Shown piece by piece: positions 202 through 57,296 of a DNA stretch of 64,000 nucleotides. The position numbers and the translations under genes were made by a program. Source of the stretch: Patescibacteria group bacterium UBA924 (GTDB lineage: Bacteria > Patescibacteriota > Microgenomatia > UBA1400 > PJMF01); NCBI GenBank assembly GCA_002293725.1, contig DBDU01000023.1, forward strand, positions 2,700 to 66,699. The letters run 5' to 3'. The notes beneath the pieces are model-generated. The model searched no databases and was not told the origin of the DNA. It saw nothing but the letters and a program-made list of their open reading frames with translations. Position 1 is the stretch's first letter. The number at the start of each line of letters is the position of its first letter.

Positions 202-275
202 GGGCCTGTAGCTCACTTGGCTAGAGCGCTTCTATGGCATAGAAGAGGTAAGGGGTTCGATTCCCCTCAGGTCCA
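202..275 (+). tRNA. tRNA-Ala, anticodon GGC
   Basis: Cloverleaf parsed by hand: acceptor GGGCCTG/CAGGTCC with a G3:U70 wobble (the Ala identity element), D-arm GCTC..GAGC, anticodon stem CTTCT/AGAAG with loop ATGGCAT (anticodon GGC), T-arm AGGGG-TTCGATT-CCCCT, discriminator A. CCA is not encoded. Confidence 0.85.
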
Positions 276-286
276 CTCTCCCCTGT

Positions 287-46977: not shown

Positions 46978-48963
46978 TTAACCGCCTACTAACTTTGCAT
47001 CGAACTTGATTCCCAGCAGCTTAACGATCTGTTTCCTAATCAAACTTACTTGTTTGTCATCAATCTGAACTTCTGGTTCTAGATATGAAATGCGGAAGCT
47101 ATAGTTCTGCTGATACTGACCTAAGAACTCCAGGTGATAGACGTTGATAAATTTATCCGAGATCGTGTTCATAACGTCACCAACTTTTGTTTGGACTGGC
47201 AAAGTAAGTGTCATGTCCTCAATCACGGGGCTAGTTTTTGGCAGTGGACGGTAGTGTGGATAGACTTGGCTCACTTCCATCAGTTTGGAAACTGTGAAGT
47301 CGATCGCGGTAACCTCACCAGGTAAAGCCACAATCTCACCAGTAGTAATCTCGCCGTGGTCTGGAGAGTTAGCCATGATCTGTGCCCGAGCATCTTCGTC
47401 TTGTTTGTACCGAACGTTCGTCACAAATAAGCTCCGTAAAAGAACTTCCAAATCTCCTTTAACCTGCTGAACACTCCGACGAGAAACCAAGCTAAGATGC
47501 AGAACTTCTAAGGGCAAACTTTTCTCTACCGGAGTGTAAGTATTTGCCAGTTCAAAAACGCTCAACTGTGAGTACTGGGGATTTTGGTCCAGTACTTCTT
47601 TCAAAGATGGAATCAGTGAGCGGCGTAAGTAGACGCGGTCGTCAGTCAGCGGATTTTGCAGTGTGAGGTGCTGCGCTAAAGTGTGGCCAGATTGTTTGGC
47701 AATCTCGGCACTAACCATAGAGTAGGTGTAAAGTTCTTGCCAACCAATAGCAGCCAAGAAGCGTTTGATGCGATCTTCCAGACGGAAGTTGATGTGCTTG
47801 GGTCGATCTAGAGGAATAGGTGTGGCCATCAACACACTGGGTAAGTTGTGGTAGCCATAAATTCTGGCAATCTCTTCGATCACATCAGCGGGAATAGTGA
47901 TGTCAGGGCGAAACGTTGGCGGCTGAATAGTGAACGTTCCTTTCTGCAAACTGACGCCACAGCCTAACTCTTCCAAGATTTGGGCGATTCGGTTAACGGG
48001 TAGCTCGATGCCTAGATAGTCCGTAATACGGTGTAAGCTAACTTGGACAGTGGGTTGAGCGCGTTTTCCTGGGAACTGATCAAATACTGGGCTAGCAACT
48101 GTAGCTCCACACAGCACGCGGAACAGCTTGGTTCCCTCTTCCAAGACAGGCAGCGAAAGATATGGGTCGACGTGTTTTTCGTTGAGTTGGGCTGCGACTG
48201 TCCGAATCGCATGACTCATTGAGCCAAAGCGAATCTTCTCAGCCACGACGTCTTCAATCCAGAACAACACATTCTTCGTACTTTCTTGAATAGCAGTGTT
48301 GGCCGTGCCTTTAATTCCAGGTAAGTCGATGATCTCACCTTGATCATTCTCAAAGACAAGCTCACCGCCTAAAGTAGTGTACTCGTTTCCATCTAAGGTA
48401 GTGAATGACTTCCCTGCTGTAGCTTCTTTGACAATAATACTGCCACCCAGTTCCATAATCTTGTCGTAGTCAAAGGCATGGCATGGATGTCCTAAATCGT
48501 GAGTAATATAGTTCGTAATATCAATTACAGCGTCGTGGACATTGATCTCCACTTGTCGTAAACGCTCAGCCATCCACTTGGGTGTGTCAGCCCGTTTGAC
48601 ATCGGCCAGGGCGACGCAGACGATTCTTTTACATAACTGAGGATTGTTGACGATCTGGGGCAGCGGTAACTTTTTGGCTGCTTTTTTAGCAGTGAAAGTA
48701 ATAGGTTCTGGTTTAAATGGTTTTAGCTTAGCGGTAATACCAAACTGGTTGAGAATGACAGCGGCTTCTCTGGCAATGCCACGCACTGACATCGAGTCTA
48801 CGCGATTGGTAGTAACTTCCATGTCATACACCGCGTCACCTTCTCGCTCATAGATGCGTTCTACAGAGGGGCCACAGAGTGAAAGATACTTTTGAATTTC
48901 AGTGGGTGTCGCTTTGGTTTCCAAGTGCTCTAGCAGCCACTTGTGGGGAATTAAGATATTCAT
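46978..48963 (-). CDS. pheT: Phenylalanyl-tRNA synthetase beta subunit (short form without the N-terminal OB-fold tRNA-binding domain).
   Basis: N-terminal MNILIPHKWLLEHL (a PheT-type start), B3/B4 editing domain, B5 domain and C-terminal anticodon-binding-like domain. 661 aa. Confidence 0.9.
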   Translation of the reverse strand: MNILIPHKWLLEHLETKATPTEIQKYLSLCGPSVERIYEREGDAVYDMEVTTNRVDSMSVRGIAREAAVILNQFGITAKLKPFKPEPITFTAKKAAKKLPLPQIVNNPQLCKRIVCVALADVKRADTPKWMAERLRQVEINVHDAVIDITNYITHDLGHPCHAFDYDKIMELGGSIIVKEATAGKSFTTLDGNEYTTLGGELVFENDQGEIIDLPGIKGTANTAIQESTKNVLFWIEDVVAEKIRFGSMSHAIRTVAAQLNEKHVDPYLSLPVLEEGTKLFRVLCGATVASPVFDQFPGKRAQPTVQVSLHRITDYLGIELPVNRIAQILEELGCGVSLQKGTFTIQPPTFRPDITIPADVIEEIARIYGYHNLPSVLMATPIPLDRPKHINFRLEDRIKRFLAAIGWQELYTYSMVSAEIAKQSGHTLAQHLTLQNPLTDDRVYLRRSLIPSLKEVLDQNPQYSQLSVFELANTYTPVEKSLPLEVLHLSLVSRRSVQQVKGDLEVLLRSLFVTNVRYKQDEDARAQIMANSPDHGEITTGEIVALPGEVTAIDFTVSKLMEVSQVYPHYRPLPKTSPVIEDMTLTLPVQTKVGDVMNTISDKFINVYHLEFLGQYQQNYSFRISYLEPEVQIDDKQVSLIRKQIVKLLGIKFDAKLVGG

Positions 48964-49485: not shown

Positions 49486-51375
49486 TTAGAACTGCTCCAA
49501 GAATCGCATCTCACCGCTGTAGAACAAACGGATGTCGTCAATATTTAAGCCAGGTTTCAAGGTATAGGTTCGTTCTACTCCCCAGCCAAAGGCAAAGCCG
49601 GTGTACTCTTCCGGATCGATCCCGCCTGCCTTCAACACATTTGGATGAACCATCCCTGCGCCGCCGACCTCATGCCAGCCGGACTTACAGAACTTACACT
49701 TGGTTTTTTGAACCTCGCCTTTACCATCTTTCTGCTCTACTTCTCCGGTGCCGTGACAAATGTGGCAGCTGAAGTCCACTTCAAAAGACGGCTCGGTAAA
49801 CTGAAAGTGAAATGGCCGAATACGACTCTTGGTGCCTGGTCCATAGAACTCTTGCGCGAAGTAGTCCAAGGTACCTTTCAAGTGTTGAATGGTAATACCT
49901 TTATCTACCACCAAGCCTTCGAACTGATGGAACATTTGGGTATGTGTGGCATCTTGCTGACGACGATAACATCGGGCAATGTTGATCATTCGAATTGGTG
50001 GAGTTGAGTTTAGTCGCTCCATCTCACGGACCTGACCATTCGAGGTATGGGTTGTTAACACTACTTTGCCAAACTTTTGATCAATGGGTGCTTCAATGAA
50101 GAAAGTCTCCCACTCGTCACGAGCTGGATGATCAGGGGGCATGTTTAAGGCTTCGAAAACATAGTGGTCCCAGTCCACTTCTGGATAACGAACGCGGGTA
50201 AAACCAATTCGTTCAAAAATTCGGGTCACTTCTTCCATCGCTTGAGAAACTGGGTGCATGTGCCCCAACTTGGGTGGCTGACCAGGAGCGGTTAAGTCTG
50301 TCCAAGGAACAGTGGTATTTTGGCTGTCTTTCAACTTTTGAATGTGCTGTTCGAGGGCAGTTTTTAGCTCATTCAAAATTTGACCAGCCTCTTTGCGGTC
50401 TTCTGGTGACACGTTGCGAATCTCTTTGGCAAGTTCGTTAAACTTTCCTTTTTTGCCTAAGTACTTTGTGGTTAACTCTTCAACTGGTGATTGATCAAGC
50501 GACAGCTCCGCACGGATGTCGGTGGACTGACGACGCAAGGCTGTTAGTGAGATAAACAGTGGTGCTTTCTGACCGTCAGCCACACTCACTTTATTTCCTT
50601 TTGATTTCTTAGTACTCTCGGGGTTTTCGACGGTGTAGTACACCAGTGAGTTTTCCCCATCTTGTTGAATGTCAGACACTTGCACAGGCCAAGCTTCGTT
50701 GGTTTGGCGCAAGTGGGTGCCACCATCTGGCATGGGCGGAAATTTGCCAATCTGCAGTAAGCGAAGTGGTTTATTTGATGGAAGGTCAAACGGGAGCTTA
50801 ACTCCTCGTTTAATCATTTCATCTTTGGTAACCATCTCCGTAGTGGTTGAGACATTCTGAGCAATGATCTTCTCCACCTCTTGCTGAATCTGTTGTTTTT
50901 GATCGGCTGAAATCTTTGTTGTGAAGGTGATACTGAGTTTTTTGCCAATGCCGTGATTGCCGTCGATGCTGGTAGCATCCTTAACAGTGTTCTTGACTGC
51001 TTGATCAACAATGTGACCCAGAGTATGCCACTGCATGTGTTGATAGCGTCTATTCCAGTCGAGATTTAAGGTAACAGTATCTCCAGCTTTTAAGTTACCT
51101 CGAAGCGTACCCTTGTGCAGGACTGACCCACCGTTGTAAGAAACATGTGTAACCTCGAACGTCCCGTTGGGACCTTCGACTGTTCCTTGATCAGCTGGTT
51201 GACCTCCACCTTGAGGATAAAAAAGAGTTTGATCAAGAATTAGACTAGCCGAGTGAGAGCCATCTGGTCTAACTTTGTTGTCTAGAATAACTTCCACGAT
51301 ATTGGCAGTGGTTTGCTGAAGATACGCGTCTTCTAAATAAAGGAGATTAGTCTGGGTAGTGTGCTTTTCTGTCAT
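49486..51375 (-). CDS. pheS: Phenylalanyl-tRNA synthetase alpha subunit fused to an N-terminal AlaX-M-like trans-editing domain.
   Basis: The C-terminal roughly 340 aa carry PheS class II motifs (FHQFEGLVVD, RPFHFQFTEPSFEVD, GWGVERT). The N-terminal roughly 260 aa read LLYLEDAYLQQ...VILDQTLFYPQGGGQPADQGT...WHTLGHIVDQA...MPDGGTHL. This is the AlaX-M/tRNA_SAD pattern (HxxxH and a CxxxH-like motif with Asp in place of Cys). Confidence 0.85.
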   Translation of the reverse strand: MTEKHTTQTNLLYLEDAYLQQTTANIVEVILDNKVRPDGSHSASLILDQTLFYPQGGGQPADQGTVEGPNGTFEVTHVSYNGGSVLHKGTLRGNLKAGDTVTLNLDWNRRYQHMQWHTLGHIVDQAVKNTVKDATSIDGNHGIGKKLSITFTTKISADQKQQIQQEVEKIIAQNVSTTTEMVTKDEMIKRGVKLPFDLPSNKPLRLLQIGKFPPMPDGGTHLRQTNEAWPVQVSDIQQDGENSLVYYTVENPESTKKSKGNKVSVADGQKAPLFISLTALRRQSTDIRAELSLDQSPVEELTTKYLGKKGKFNELAKEIRNVSPEDRKEAGQILNELKTALEQHIQKLKDSQNTTVPWTDLTAPGQPPKLGHMHPVSQAMEEVTRIFERIGFTRVRYPEVDWDHYVFEALNMPPDHPARDEWETFFIEAPIDQKFGKVVLTTHTSNGQVREMERLNSTPPIRMINIARCYRRQQDATHTQMFHQFEGLVVDKGITIQHLKGTLDYFAQEFYGPGTKSRIRPFHFQFTEPSFEVDFSCHICHGTGEVEQKDGKGEVQKTKCKFCKSGWHEVGGAGMVHPNVLKAGGIDPEEYTGFAFGWGVERTYTLKPGLNIDDIRLFYSGEMRFLEQF

Positions 51376-51423
51376 ACGATTCCTTGATTATAGTGTCTTC
51401 TCTTGTTTTCCGCTCTTGTTTTC

Positions 51424-51449
51424 AATAAAAAACCCCGCTGGTGGCGGGG
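51424..51449 (-). terminator. Intrinsic terminator in the rplT-pheS intergenic leader.
   Basis: Stem CCCCGC/GCGGGG with a 5-nt loop. The minus strand reads hairpin then TTTTTTATT. It lies 37 nt after the rplT stop and about 50 nt before the pheS ATG. Confidence 0.7.
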
Positions 51450-51485
51450 TTTCTGATTTCTGTTTGAGTGTTGACGTGCCTCGAA

Positions 51486-51836
51486 TTAACCCCGCACTTT
51501 TTCGACGATGGTTTTAAACGAAGCAAAGTCAGTGGCAGCAATATCAGCCAAGATCTTGCGATCTAAGGAAATGTTGGCTTTCTTCATCATGTTGATGAAG
51601 CGTGAGTAGTTGATGTCACCAATAGTTTTTAAAGCAGCTGAGATACGTAAGATCCATAGTGAGCGCATATCGCGTTTACGGAGCTTACGACCAACGTAGG
51701 CGTATTGACCTGCGTGCAGATCGGCTTCTTTAGCACGTTTGTAGAGACGGGTGTTTGCACCACGGAAGCTCTTGGTACGAGCGAGAAGTTTTTTGTGACG
51801 GCGATGTCGAATGACACCAGTTTTTGCTCTTGGCAT
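51486..51836 (-). CDS. rplT: 50S ribosomal protein L20.
   Basis: MPRAKTGVIRHRRHKKLLARTKSFRGA... Confidence 0.95.
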   Translation of the reverse strand: MPRAKTGVIRHRRHKKLLARTKSFRGANTRLYKRAKEADLHAGQYAYVGRKLRKRDMRSLWILRISAALKTIGDINYSRFINMMKKANISLDRKILADIAATDFASFKTIVEKVRG

Positions 51837-52060: not shown

Positions 52061-52639
52061 TTATTTTTTCTTGATTGGCATCAGCTGAGCCATCATTTTC
52101 TTGCCCAGCATTTTTGGTTGAATCTCAACGGTGGCAATCTCAGCAGTCTCGGCGAAAACACGATCAAAGTGCTCTCGGCCAAACTCCTGCTTGGTAATCG
52201 CCCGACCTTTGAACTCAAGGGTTAAGCGAACTTTGTCACCTTTTTTTAAGAACTCAACAATTCTTTTTAATCGAGTTTGGAAGTCTCCTTCACCAATAAA
52301 TGGCGTGAAACGGATTTCCTTGATATCTTGCTGCTTTGATTTCTTGCGGCCTTCAGCTATTTTCTGCTGAAGTTGATATCGGTACTTGGCTAAATCAATA
52401 ATCTTAGCGATCGGTGGCTTTGCCCCTTCGGTCACTAAAACTAAGTCCTTGCCTTCGTTACGTGCACGTTCCATGGCTTCTTGAGTGGACATGACTCCAA
52501 TCATCTCGCCGATATCGGTGAGGACTCGCAACTCGGGGACGCGAATGTTGAAGTTCGCTGTGACTCTAAATTGCTGTTGAGGCCGTTGAAACGGTTTTTT
52601 TCTGATCATGAGATCGGTCTGTTCTCTTCTCCCTGTCAA
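52061..52639 (-). CDS. infC: Translation initiation factor IF-3.
   Basis: N- and C-terminal IF-3 domains (INEEIRVPELRVL-like, KGDKVRLTLEFKGRAI). The true start codon is uncertain; IF-3 genes often use atypical starts. Confidence 0.9.
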   Translation of the reverse strand: MTGRREQTDLMIRKKPFQRPQQQFRVTANFNIRVPELRVLTDIGEMIGVMSTQEAMERARNEGKDLVLVTEGAKPPIAKIIDLAKYRYQLQQKIAEGRKKSKQQDIKEIRFTPFIGEGDFQTRLKRIVEFLKKGDKVRLTLEFKGRAITKQEFGREHFDRVFAETAEIATVEIQPKMLGKKMMAQLMPIKKK

Positions 52640-53547: not shown

Positions 53548-54411
53548 CTAGAGAATAATGCTATCTTCTTCGGGAGTGTTGTCGTAATTAATGACAAAGA
53601 CGTCAGTGTTGTAGCTGTTCACTCCGACGAACTCAGCTTCACCACGTTGGACTTTTAAGAAAGGCTCACAGGCTCTGCAGCTCTCTCCACCTGGACACTT
53701 GTAGCGGTTAAGTTTACGAGCCAGCTTCACTTGTTTGGCTAGTTCTAACACCCGTTGGTGAGACGTTGCTAAATCTGGCAGCTCCTTCTCAGTTAAGTTA
53801 TCATCGTACTGTAAGTACCAGTAACAGGCATGCGCGACTTTGCGTTTTTGACAGTTGGCCACTAGTAAGCAGTAGATTGGCAGCTGCAACGAGTCCTCTT
53901 TCTCTTCGTTTTTCCCCGTTTTAAAGTCAATAATGTTGACCATGTTGGTGTCTGGGAGGTACTCTAGCCAGTCAACCTTGCCGCACAGAATAATCTGATC
54001 CTCGGGACTTAGCCAATAATGAGGTAAGTCCATGTTGATTTTGACGGCTAAGTTCCTTAACGGGCCAGGGTGTTGCTCAACTCGGCGGATCATCTCCTCA
54101 GCGCGTTGGCGATATCGCAGCTCTTGTTCAGGACTGGAAAAGCCACCTTTTTTACCACTGACTTTTTCCCATGCCGTAGAGAGTTTCATTAAGAGGGGCT
54201 CGCGAAAACGCTGCTCGGTTTGGAGCGTCGAAAGTGACTCCACCACATCGTGAACCGCTTGGCCCAAGGCCAAGGCAGGGCTCATGACCGTCATCTTATG
54301 ACCTGTTTCTGGTCTTTTATAGACATTTTTCAAGTAGTAGAGCTGTGGACAAGTAACAAAGTCTGAAAGTGACGAGTGGGAAACCCAAACAGCCGAGTAT
54401 TTATCGCTCAT
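53548..54411 (-). CDS. Cas4/RecB-like PD-(D/E)xK nuclease with a 4Fe-4S Cys cluster.
   Basis: VNIIDFKTGK (the hhhDYKTG motif of the RecB nuclease fold). One N-terminal Cys (VTCPQ) and a C-terminal CPGGESCRAC: the Cas4/AddB-type Fe-S arrangement. Start likely at MSDKY (54411). Confidence 0.6.
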   Translation of the reverse strand: MSDKYSAVWVSHSSLSDFVTCPQLYYLKNVYKRPETGHKMTVMSPALALGQAVHDVVESLSTLQTEQRFREPLLMKLSTAWEKVSGKKGGFSSPEQELRYRQRAEEMIRRVEQHPGPLRNLAVKINMDLPHYWLSPEDQIILCGKVDWLEYLPDTNMVNIIDFKTGKNEEKEDSLQLPIYCLLVANCQKRKVAHACYWYLQYDDNLTEKELPDLATSHQRVLELAKQVKLARKLNRYKCPGGESCRACEPFLKVQRGEAEFVGVNSYNTDVFVINYDNTPEEDSIIL

Positions 54412-54418
54412 AGTTCCT

Positions 54419-55471
54419 TTATCTAGTACTACCGCCGCGTTGTCGAATATAAAGTGGATCAAAAATGATGGCTTGTTCTTGAATCGTTCTCATGAGTAGC
54501 TCGAGCTTACTTTGATCATCCCCACTGGCAGTTATGATCTGTCGACAACGCAGACATGCTTCGGTCGGCATCATCCAGTTACAGTATCGGTCTAGCGGAT
54601 TTTCGTCAAGTGGATGGACGTCAATAAACACATCTAACAAGGTCAGGCCTCGTTCTTCATAGCGCTCATAATGGGTATAGCCACTTCTGAACTTCCAACG
54701 ATAGCTAGGGTCAAGGAATGAGCGGAAACCATACTGATCTAGGATTCCCGACATCACTTTTGAAAGTGCGGCACGAACCTTATAGCTGTACTCATTCATT
54801 AGCGGAATTAATGCTTCGGCAAGTTGCCTATCTTTAGCTAGCATCTCAAACCAAAAACGATCAAGCTCGATTCCTTCTAAATAAGGTAAGAAAACGGCTT
54901 GTTCTGTTCCCCCCAAGGGTTCGAGGGTATTAACACACGCCAACCCGGTAGTGGCTGCGACTTCAGGACTAAGGTGCTCGGTGGCGATGTGCAGTTGATC
55001 AAGAAGGGCGGCCATTTCCCAGCCGCGTAGTGCGCCCTTTTTCAGAAATAATTTTTCGACCGCTTGGATGTTTGCTTGGGTAGATGTTGAACTTTCTCCC
55101 CTTTTTCTTTCCCTTAAGATTTCCCACCAGCTTTTTTTTTGAAAGGGAGCGTCATCAACAATTGAGACTCTTCCGTCCTCATTTTGCACAGCCGAGAGTC
55201 GTTGCCCGTTCAGCTGTCGCTCAACTGCGCCTTGCAGTACCCGTCGTTTTGTCTCTCGGTCGACTGCACGCAAGAACTCTTGGCCAGCAGTGGTGAGCAC
55301 TGCCATCTTCGGGGCTTTGTGAAAGAGAGCTGAGTGAGTTTCAGGTTCGGTAGCCTGTGAGGCCCAAATGCGGCCAGCTTGATCTCGATCAATAGCCCAA
55401 GGCCTGGGGGCATGTTCAGTATGCCTCCCAGGCTTCTTGGACGACTCATGTTCAACTGTAACCATAGGCAA
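54419..55471 (-). CDS. Hypothetical protein (350 aa) in an operon with the Cas4-like nuclease.
   Basis: Ends 7 nt before the nuclease start. No recognisable domain. Contains an A9 coding homopolymer (55132-55140 on the + strand). Confidence 0.45.
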   Translation of the reverse strand: MPMVTVEHESSKKPGRHTEHAPRPWAIDRDQAGRIWASQATEPETHSALFHKAPKMAVLTTAGQEFLRAVDRETKRRVLQGAVERQLNGQRLSAVQNEDGRVSIVDDAPFQKKSWWEILRERKRGESSTSTQANIQAVEKLFLKKGALRGWEMAALLDQLHIATEHLSPEVAATTGLACVNTLEPLGGTEQAVFLPYLEGIELDRFWFEMLAKDRQLAEALIPLMNEYSYKVRAALSKVMSGILDQYGFRSFLDPSYRWKFRSGYTHYERYEERGLTLLDVFIDVHPLDENPLDRYCNWMMPTEACLRCRQIITASGDDQSKLELLMRTIQEQAIIFDPLYIRQRGGSTR

Positions 55472-55472
55472 G

Positions 55473-57296
55473 CTAGCGTGCTTTTGTCTCGATTTCTTTC
55501 TTCATCTGCTCGATGAGCTTGGAGAGACGGAGCAAGCCAAGGTCTTTATTTCCGCGTTGGCGAACACTAATGGTTTGATCTTCCACTTCTTGTTTGCCAA
55601 TAATAATCATATACGGTACTTTTTCTTTCTCAGCACGACGAATACGCTTCTGCATGCTCTCGGCTTCATTCCAGTTCTCCACTCTGATGTTAGCTGCTTT
55701 GAGCTCTGCTACCAGCGACTCAGCATACTCATGCTGATCTTGAGAGATAGGAATGACAACGGCTTGCACAGGTGCTAGCCAAAGTGGGAACGCCCCACCA
55801 AACTTCTCAATCAAGAAAGCCATGATGCGCTCAATTGCACCGATTGACGAACGATGAATCACAATTGGCTCTTCTTCCTTGCCTTCCTCGTTGATGTACT
55901 TCAACTCAAAACGTTTAGGCATGACAAAGTCATACTGGACGGTAAATGCTGTCTCTTCTTTGCCATGAACGTTCTTCATCTGGACATCGATCTTTGGTCC
56001 GTAGAAAGCGGCTTCTTGCTCGGCTTCTACATAGATAGATTGACGCTCTTTGAGTACTTTACGTAGGACTTCTTCGGCAAAGTCCCAAGAGGCATCATCT
56101 TTGTAGTACTTCTTGTCATCGGCACGATCTCCCAAAGAGAGGCGGAAGTGATAGTCGTCACCCGCTTTGAGCCCCCATAGCCCTGCAACGTACTCAATGA
56201 GATCCAAGACAGCATTAATTTCTTGGTTAGCTTGGCTCTTGCGGGCAATGATGTGGGCATCTGCCAAACAGAACGTTCGTACGCGCATTAAGCCAGTTAA
56301 CTCGCCTGATTTTTCGTAGCGATACAACTGAGCTAGCTCGGCCAACCGCATTGGCAGCTCTTTGTAGCTATGTGGCTGTGACTTATAGATCTCAAAATGA
56401 TGCGGACACGTCATTGGCCGCAACATGAACTCTTCGTCATCGATCTTGATTGGGGCGTACATTGTTTCTTTGTAGTACGGATAGTGACCCGATGTTTTGT
56501 ACAGGTCCAGTAACGCCAAGTCTGGGGTATTAACGTGTAAGTATCCTCGTTTAATCTCCTCATCAACAACAAATCTCTCTAACTCACGACGAACGGTGGC
56601 GCCTTTTGGAGTCCAGAGTGGCAACCCTTTGCCGATCAGGTCGGAAAACGTAAAGAGGCCAAGTTCTGCACCCAGTTTGCGATGATCGTTTTGTTTGGCT
56701 CGCTCCAGCTGTTCAAGATACGCATCAAGCTCTTCTTGAGAGTTAAACGCCGTTCCATAGATACGCGTTAACATCTTGTTTTTCTCATCGCCATGCCAGT
56801 AGGCTCCTGCCACTGAAAGTAGCTTGAAAGCTTTAATTGCGCCCGTCGACTCTGCGTGTGGTCCACTGCACAGATCCACCATCGAACCTTTTTCGCCAGG
56901 TTTGCCTGTCCAGTAAATCGTCACTTTTTCACCGCGTTTTTCGATCTCATCCACCCACTCCATCTTGTAAGGGTTGTCGCCAAACAGTTTGCGAGCTTCT
57001 GCTGGAGAGACCTCTTGGCAGATCATGGGTAAGTTACGCTTAATAATCTCCCGCATCCGTTTTTCAATCTTCGGGAAGTTGGCTTCGGAGATAACTACTT
57101 TCACGCCTTCTTTGGGACTGCCATCAAAGTCAAAGTAAAAACCGTCTTCGGTAGCTGGTCCCATCGCTAAGAGAATCTCTGGATAGAGCTCCTTAACGGC
57201 TTGATGCAAAACGTGCTCTGCAGTATGACGAACTGCCCAGAGTTGTTGCTCTTTTGCTGACTTCTGGCTCAGTGCTTCGTCCAGTTTTTGTGACAT
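55473..57296 (-). CDS. thrS: Threonyl-tRNA synthetase lacking the N-terminal TGS (N1) domain but retaining the N2 editing domain.
   Basis: HTAEHVLHQA (HxxxH) and DLCSGPHAEST (CxxxH) editing motifs. Class II core (motif 2 FRLSLGDR-region, motif 3 HRSSIGAIERIMAFLIE). C-terminal anticodon-binding domain. 607 aa. Confidence 0.9.
   Translation of the reverse strand: MSQKLDEALSQKSAKEQQLWAVRHTAEHVLHQAVKELYPEILLAMGPATEDGFYFDFDGSPKEGVKVVISEANFPKIEKRMREIIKRNLPMICQEVSPAEARKLFGDNPYKMEWVDEIEKRGEKVTIYWTGKPGEKGSMVDLCSGPHAESTGAIKAFKLLSVAGAYWHGDEKNKMLTRIYGTAFNSQEELDAYLEQLERAKQNDHRKLGAELGLFTFSDLIGKGLPLWTPKGATVRRELERFVVDEEIKRGYLHVNTPDLALLDLYKTSGHYPYYKETMYAPIKIDDEEFMLRPMTCPHHFEIYKSQPHSYKELPMRLAELAQLYRYEKSGELTGLMRVRTFCLADAHIIARKSQANQEINAVLDLIEYVAGLWGLKAGDDYHFRLSLGDRADDKKYYKDDASWDFAEEVLRKVLKERQSIYVEAEQEAAFYGPKIDVQMKNVHGKEETAFTVQYDFVMPKRFELKYINEEGKEEEPIVIHRSSIGAIERIMAFLIEKFGGAFPLWLAPVQAVVIPISQDQHEYAESLVAELKAANIRVENWNEAESMQKRIRRAEKEKVPYMIIIGKQEVEDQTISVRQRGNKDLGLLRLSKLIEQMKKEIETKAR

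Follow-up and report, generated by a model that had tools for sequence, protein, structure and literature searches.

Editing domains of aminoacyl-tRNA synthetases (aaRSs) are a textbook case of modular evolution and are found in cis on a synthetase or as free factors that act in trans. AlaRS and ThrRS use theirs to clear errors of their own (Ser on tRNA-Ala or tRNA-Thr), and the known substrates of the AlaX family are Ser- and Gly-tRNA(Ala). The known error of PheRS is Tyr, which is handled in its PheT subunit by a different fold. AlaRS and ThrRS are, to our knowledge, the only synthetases known so far to have the AlaX fold built in, and all characterised members of the fold that we know of act on small side chains (Ser, Gly). 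Here we describe a gene for the PheRS alpha subunit, pheS, that carries an AlaX-M-type module at its N-terminus. It lies on a stretch of 64,000 nucleotides of contig DBDU01000023.1 from Patescibacteria group bacterium UBA924, which we refer to as the window.

A PheS subunit with an AlaX-M-type module

The gene is one unbroken open reading frame (ORF) of 629 codons plus a stop. Its parts, with the evidence for each, are as follows.

49486..51375, minus strand: AlaX-M-like::PheS fusion gene (single ORF, domain matches, same protein in independent assemblies)
51061..51351, minus strand: N-terminal beta-barrel, residues ~9-105, with the glycine-rich loop FYPQGGGQP (Pfam; alignments; all-beta in the AlphaFold2 model)
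50626..51060, minus strand: editing core, residues ~106-250 (NCBIfam AlaXM to residue 243; Foldseek matches to 2e1b, 9iuw, 3kew and 2zze)
51013..51027, minus strand: HTLGH (H117...H121), first zinc/catalytic motif, HxxxH (homologue alignments)
50713..50727, minus strand: DGGTH (D217...H221), second motif, with Asp for the Cys of canonical AlaX (homologue alignments)
50494..50625, minus strand: low-complexity variable linker, residues ~251-294 (length and sequence hypervariable among fused homologues)
50581..50602, minus strand: in-frame sequence AAAAGGAA, resembling a Shine-Dalgarno (SD) site, with two GTG codons after it (V263, 50587..50589; V265, 50581..50583) at which PheS might start internally (sequence reading)
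50326..50484, minus strand: PheS N-terminal coiled coil, residues 298-350 (PF02912)
49489..50298, minus strand: PheS class II core, residues 360-629, with a Cys-rich insert CHICHG...CKFCK (PF01409; alignment to E. coli PheS)
50554..51363, minus strand: segment of ~810 nt (270 codons) missing in frame from the closest relatives, L096-L099 (DNA alignment against L096; locus contexts)

A preliminary description of this stretch had reported a PheS alpha subunit of 629 residues with an AlaX-M-like N-terminal region, and both observations held. Residues ~9-250 form a complete AlaX-M-like module of beta-barrel and editing core, residues ~251-294 a variable linker of ~45 residues, and residues ~295-629 a full bacterial PheS. 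The motifs cited in that description were all found: NLLYLEDAYL at residues 10-19, FYPQGGGQPADQG at 52-64, HTLGH at 117-121 and DGGTH at 217-221. The PheS part (residues ~290-629) aligns over its full length with E. coli PheS (327 aa). It matched Phe_tRNA-synt_N (PF02912) at residues 298-350 (E=2.3e-16) and tRNA-synt_2d (PF01409) at residues 360-629 (E=4.6e-80), and the pheS model TIGR00468 scored 241.6 bits, over its cutoff of 237.45.

For the N-terminal region, profile, PDB sequence and fold matches concur. Residues 15-109 matched Pfam tRNA-synt_2c in its C-terminal barrel part (positions 458-552 of the profile; E=6.8e-17), and the NCBIfam AlaXM profile (NF040865) matched residues 9-243 with its positions 1-226 of 234 (E=1.4e-41). 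The tRNA_SAD-type profile PF07973 had no match at E<=0.01 in the 629-aa protein; some relatives do match it. A PDB sequence search returned 2zze, which is the barrel-plus-editing region of Pyrococcus horikoshii AlaRS, and the AlaX-M structures 2e1b and 9iuw, the AlaX-M matches having E-values of about 1e-12 to 1e-18. Residues 1-254 were modelled with AlphaFold2 using 120 homologues, and the model had a mean predicted local distance difference test score of 94.3 and a predicted template modelling (TM) score of 0.90. Its best full-length fold matches in Foldseek were again 2e1b and 9iuw (TM 0.84-0.86, target-normalised); the AlaRS region 2zze followed with a query-normalised TM score (TMq) of 0.80, and 3kew was also matched. 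The protein is thus a PheS with a complete AlaX-M-type module at its N-terminus, in a genuine in-frame fusion.

A frameshift, an assembly error or a mis-called gene could also join two genes into one long ORF. Two relatives show how this might happen: in L002 the two genes overlap by just 4 nt, such that a one-base error could fuse them, and L001 carries the two parts in different frames. Such an artefact is hardly credible here, however, since the exact 629-aa protein is present on five contigs from four sources (NCBI, JGI, ENA and Logan), the longest of 1,202,931 bp, and six more members of its 90% cluster are likewise 629 aa long. The same one-ORF architecture, with differing linker sequences, recurs well beyond this cluster. 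When 1.84 billion cluster representatives were searched exhaustively with HMMER, at least 10 more full-length fusions (50%-identity clusters) came up; they are 566-627 aa in length and 32-54% identical to the window protein, and in all but one the match to the query is continuous, from about residue 9 to residue 629. In a scan of one genome per species, an AlaX-like match and PheS shared the same ORF and frame in 17 genomes (L008-L021, L023, L042), whose record titles name Gottesmanbacteria, Amesbacteria, Paceibacterota and Patescibacteria. The fusion stood up to a search of related genomes and to a test for assembly errors, two points that the preliminary description had raised. A homologue search with the N-terminal fragment gave no full-length fusion; this list missed even the window's own 629-aa protein, so that absence from it is no evidence of absence. 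We found no description of an AlaX-PheS fusion in the literature searched, and the architecture, which recurs, is apparently undescribed.

We next compared the editing site with those of other AlaX proteins. The second motif is CGGTH in canonical AlaX, DGGTH in the window and DGGTQ in most relatives. As noted in the preliminary description, Asp occupies the position of the Cys zinc ligand, and the alignment shows no CxxxH there. Most of the 120 closest homologues are free-standing proteins 228-245 aa in length; across the set, H117 and H121 never vary, and D217 is conserved to at least 90%. H121 is also invariant in the fused representatives, whereas H117 is replaced in two of them, by Gln in P0124 and by Arg in the truncated P0127. 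In the alignments, G56-G58 and Q59 of the barrel loop are invariant or nearly so, and the core (GGGQP, D62, H87, R110, H121, R205 and G218-T220) is kept in fused members down to about 32% identity. From this conservation we infer that the active site is still under selection, with a changed set of ligands.

A column comparison of 26 Asp-type sequences linked to pheS (fused or adjacent), six free Asp-type sequences and 54 canonical Cys-type sequences showed a switch at just two conserved positions, from Cys to Asp at 217 and from His to Gln at 221, with the other conserved core residues common to all. Cys at position 217 is found in 100% of the 54 canonical Cys...His sequences. Free-standing homologues without linkage to pheS have both switches too, and the free Asp-type genes sit in neighbourhoods without relation to pheS. 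By these alignments, Asp at this position, usually with the change from His to Gln four residues on, is the mark of a large, mostly free-standing family of AlaX-like proteins in Patescibacteria. We also considered the Asp variant as an adaptation to PheRS, and rejected this because of its conservation in the mostly free-standing closest homologues and their pheS-unrelated neighbourhoods.

Gain, loss and likely role of the module

The operon of relatives reads thrS-infC-rpmI-rplT-[alaX-like]-pheS-pheT, which differs from the order in E. coli by an alaX-like gene added after rplT. The fused state is the majority among relatives. The alaX-like gene is separate in L002, where it has the 4-nt overlap with pheS mentioned above, and an unfused alaX lies directly upstream of pheS in L024 and L041. 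In L001, which is nested among fused forms in a quick neighbour-joining tree, the module and PheS are split into two overlapping frames, and PheS has an SD and ATG of its own. The loci L096-L099 are fully syntenic with the window, and their PheS is only 361 aa long and 84-87% identical to window residues 275-629 (PheT is 72-76% identical). No AlaX remnant was found within 10 kb of these four pheS loci. Aligned as DNA, the window and L096 are homologous through the terminator hairpin, the TATAAT, the SD, the ATG and the first four codons, and they are homologous again from 50553 on, within the linker; in between they differ by an in-frame indel of ~810 nt. A deletion in the L096 lineage appears the likelier direction, because L096 keeps the start context of the AlaX gene and the module is widespread in the surrounding clade. 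Judging from these loci, the module is dispensable in close relatives.

Fusions were also found in other PheS lineages (L093/L094/P0131, P0137/P0129/L012 and P0130). Those in L093 and L094 carry canonical CGGTH and lie in another neighbourhood, that of hrcA-grpE-dnaK. The occurrence of fusions in several PheS lineages indicates that the architecture arose or was transferred more than once. Both of our trees were quick neighbour-joining trees without support values, and we use them for coarse statements only.

A different arrangement was seen at L041 6001..7785, where a canonical Cys-type alaX lies directly upstream of a pheS/pheT pair that falls in the Asp-type main clade. The alaX gene may have been replaced in place here. 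If so, this would argue for selection on the linkage of alaX and pheS.

The partner subunit is encoded in the same operon, downstream of pheS:

46978..48963, minus strand: pheT, 661 aa, without B2 and with a remodelled B3/B4 pocket (Pfam, alignments)

Pfam matched the B3_4, B5 and core domains of this PheT, and FDX-ACB weakly. The preliminary description had stated that PheT lacks its N-terminal tRNA-binding domain, and this is correct: tRNA_bind (B2) had no Pfam match, and 0 of the 111 E. coli B2 residues were aligned. The editing residues of PheT are, in E. coli numbering, R244, N254, H265, G318, E334, T354 and A356, of which Glu334 senses the Tyr hydroxyl and Arg244 contacts C75 (PMC8599791). 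The window PheT has N141, W235 and E237 at the positions of E. coli R244, E334 and A336, and keeps N254, H265, G318, T354 and A356. Glu334 is absent from all 22 alaX-linked PheRS, which have Trp, Phe or Leu instead (Asp in L012), and position 336 is Glu, Gln or Asp (Gly in L012). Asn254, His265 and Gly318 are kept in all 22, as are Thr354 and Ala356 except in the divergent L012. Arg244 was additionally lost in the window's sub-clade (Asn or Gly). The comparison rests on few controls: L091 and L092, both without alaX, keep Glu334 and Ala336, and three controls keep Glu334. Editing of Tyr-tRNA(Phe) may be altered or lost in this clade, as far as these substitutions indicate. The loci with the remodelled pocket were the window, L001, L002, L008-L024, L041, L042 and L096-L098.

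These PheT changes do not follow the module. The independent fusions L093 and L094 have B2 and a fully canonical PheT pocket (Glu334, Arg244), and the AlaX-less L096-L098 retain the remodelled pocket N244, W334 and E336. As these two groups break the association, the PheT changes are traits of the clade and not tied to the module. An obligate link in which the pocket change co-evolves with the module was rejected, since L093/L094 keep Glu334 and L096-L098 keep Trp334 and Asn244. So was a tie between loss of B2 and gain of the module: L092 has neither B2 nor any alaX, L094 is fused and has B2, and L096 lacks both B2 and the module.

The reading that we favour, with a probability of roughly 0.6, is that of an autonomous AlaX-type deacylase tethered to PheRS, as opposed to an integral proofreading site of the synthetase. 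An alaX-like gene between rplT and pheS has merged with pheS into one reading frame. The module, which is predicted to be still an autonomous hydrolase of mis-acylated tRNA, would be tethered to PheRS by the flexible linker of ~45 residues, giving two copies per (alpha-beta)2 enzyme and coupling its expression to that of the synthetase, and would not have been turned into an integral PheRS proofreading site. Its likeliest targets would still be Ser- or Gly-tRNA(Ala), and its metal or catalytic site would be a variant composed of His, His, Asp, and His or Gln. Autonomy is favoured because the module is cleanly deleted in the closest relatives and a separate gene in others, and because its residue switches are common to free homologues. 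The hypervariable linker, the separate overlapping frames of L001 with their own start for PheS, and the pairing of the distant CGGTH fusion lineage with a fully canonical PheT are further points in favour. A substrate for AlaX-type editing is available, as the window encodes a tRNA-Ala(GGC) (202..276, plus strand) with the canonical G3:U70 pair and the A73 discriminator. We found no alaS in the 64-kb window and no Patescibacteria alaS in any relative locus examined. 'Small-AlaRS' forms with the editing domain present and the barrel absent have been described in the candidate phyla radiation (bioRxiv 10.1101/2023.05.29.542759).

Several observations weigh against an autonomous deacylase. The match to NF040865 scores 142.7 bits, well under the 300-bit cutoff of this equivalog model, despite near-full coverage of the profile. 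Two of the four canonical zinc ligands are altered in most of the family and one in the window, changes by which catalysis could be altered or lost, and no solved structure carries the Asp-variant AlaX site. The linkage of alaX and pheS also recurs, both in several fused PheS lineages and as a canonical-type alaX at the same spot in L041, which hints at a selective advantage of coupling to PheRS beyond plain tethering.

The recurrent linkage also fits with what the preliminary description had proposed, a second proofreading site of PheRS. The module would then act in cis on mis-acylated tRNA(Phe) and complement, or compensate for, the re-specified PheT pocket, in which the main clade lost Glu334 and gained Glu, Gln or Asp at 336 and the window's sub-clade also lost Arg244. 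The PheS N-terminus is near the catalytic core in PheRS structures, so that the acceptor end could be within reach of a module tethered there. Comparison of the relatives speaks rather against this proposal, which we consider unlikely: L096-L098 have the identical remodelled pocket with no module, L093 and L094 have the module with a canonical pocket and B2, and the module was cleanly lost in the closest relatives and is a separate gene elsewhere. In addition, the conserved pocket residues of the module are the same as in free-standing homologues, its differences from canonical AlaX are common to free homologues unlinked to pheS, and the small side chains handled by the characterised members of the fold do not point to tRNA(Phe) errors. 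A related proposal, that an AlaX-fold hydrolase with a new set of metal ligands, His/His/Asp/(His or Gln), was recruited to PheRS to add a new proofreading activity on tRNA(Phe) or another non-canonical substrate, beside a PheT pocket re-specified by the change of Glu334 to an aromatic residue and of Ala336 to Glu, Gln or Asp, seems quite improbable. If true, this editing fold would for the first time be seen to serve a synthetase beyond AlaRS or ThrRS.

The altered ligands, with Cys replaced by Asp and, in most relatives, His by Gln, would also be expected of a catalytically dead module, an add-on for tRNA binding or scaffolding that stands, for instance, in for the PheT B2 that is missing throughout the main clade. 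Against such a replacement, B2 is absent without alaX in L092 and present with an independent fusion in L094, and close AlaX-less relatives have neither B2 nor the module. Moreover, H121, D217, GGGQP and R205 are invariant or nearly so in fused members of 32-65% identity, two of which vary at H117, and in the 120 mostly free homologues. Such conservation is hard to explain for a dead module, so an active site under selection is more fitting, and we regard this reading of a dead appendage as quite unlikely.

Operon context and neighbouring genes

Upstream of the fusion gene, the window retains most of the operon seen in relatives, and a further ORF lies between pheS and pheT. The genes upstream of rplT, and rplT itself, were assigned from the ORF list, Pfam and synteny with L001, L002 and L096, and the upstream elements by sequence reading and a hairpin scan.

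55473..57296, minus strand: thrS, 607 aa
54419..55471, minus strand: ORF
53548..54462, minus strand: ORF
52061..52639, minus strand: infC
51486..51836, minus strand: rplT
51430..51452, minus strand: terminator-like hairpin after rplT
51387..51392, minus strand: TATAAT
51380..51385, minus strand: SD AAGGAA
48960..49484, minus strand: ORF of 174 aa with a GNAT fold, lying between the fusion gene and pheT in translational coupling (weak Pfam GNAT matches; AlphaFold2 model)

In relatives, rpmI lies between infC and rplT; it was not located in the window. The hairpin, which is GC-rich and has a T-run, the TATAAT and the AAGGAA are also kept upstream of pheS in L096 (3850..3916) and L098. This conservation suggests that pheS has a promoter of its own and that a terminator or attenuator follows rplT. 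An Rfam scan of the operon gave no match.

Stand-alone PheS might in addition be made from the fusion gene by internal initiation, which the sequence makes possible in the window. The PheS start of L096 lies 4-6 codons downstream of the window's GTG codons V263/V265, and L001 has its SD and ATG at the spot equivalent to the SD-like AAAAGGAA/GTG of the window. A conserved internal start for separate PheS was rejected, as L010 has neither SD and GTG nor SD and ATG; such a start may apply to the window alone.

The GNAT ORF starts 1 nt past the pheS stop and has an ATGA overlap with pheT. Its family is small, with seven homologue clusters, and in each of the four other loci examined (L096-L099) a member likewise separates pheS from pheT. 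The AlphaFold2 model has a generic GNAT fold, with RimI, NatA and a lysine acetyltransferase as its nearest matches, and a PADLOC scan of the ORF gave no match. A link of this ORF to PheRS or Phe-tRNA is possible. In relatives, other and unrelated small ORFs or spacers were seen at the same junction (L091 2399..2839; gaps of ~450 nt in L008 and L016), which seems to be a recurrent insertion site.

The preliminary description had also noted that ThrRS lacks its TGS domain. Pfam and alignment agree with this: the protein begins just before HxxxH and keeps CxxxH, and the ThrRS of relatives (584-607 aa) have the same Pfam content. The broader claim of a remodelling of aaRS accessory domains thus stands as regards the losses themselves. 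It does not stand as one coordinated event, considering that L092 has neither B2 nor alaX and that L093/L094 keep B2.

Among the records L008, L010, L012, L013, L016, L018, L024 and L041, several are titled 'uncultured Pseudomonadales' or 'Gammaproteobacteria bacterium' despite their Patescibacteria-type operon. These labels look wrong for these metagenome-assembled genomes.

Significance and comparison with known systems

The AlaX-M fold and bona fide PheS are each known, and what appears to be new is their joining. The AlaX fold is found on PheRS in dozens of species. Since close relatives show all states of the module (separate, fused, re-split and cleanly deleted), they form a ready comparative system. 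Two questions are opened by this: what a minimal-genome cell gains from tethering a trans-editing factor to an unrelated synthetase, and how the Asp (and Gln) variant of the zinc site affects catalysis. Public annotation names just the synthetase subunit, as in the cluster member MBW7955942.1 at NCBI ('phenylalanine--tRNA ligase subunit alpha [Patescibacteria group bacterium]'), and surveys of editing capacity would therefore miss the module.

The closest described systems are the AlaX-M proteins of P. horikoshii (PH0108, 2e1b), P. furiosus (9iuw) and Clostridium perfringens (3kew). They have the same two-domain plan of a GGGQ-loop barrel and an editing core, the same HxxxH and, like the window module, no C-terminal oligomerisation domain (TM 0.83-0.86, target-normalised). 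AlaX-M is free-standing, whereas the window module is fused to PheS, has DGGTH for CxxxH and falls under the NF040865 cutoff. The window module comes from a bacterium (Patescibacteria), not an archaeon. The free Asp-type AlaX-like proteins of Patescibacteria (such as P0016 and P0028; 'alanyl-tRNA editing protein' at NCBI) are of the same family, with 32-40% identity and the same His/His/Asp set and core. These are encoded by separate genes for 228-245 aa in unrelated neighbourhoods and mostly have Gln in place of the window's His221.

Homologous folds in cis on a synthetase are the editing region of the class II enzyme AlaRS (2zze, 3wqy; Foldseek TMq 0.77-0.80) and the N2 editing domain of ThrRS (TMq about 0.49). 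These cases show that an AlaX fold can work as a built-in editing site. The difference is that AlaRS and ThrRS edit their own errors, while the host synthetase here is PheRS. Compared with E. coli PheS (327 aa), the window protein adds about 290 N-terminal residues. Compared with canonical bacterial PheRS, the locus further differs by the GNAT gene between pheS and pheT, and by a PheT that lacks B2 and has a changed editing pocket.

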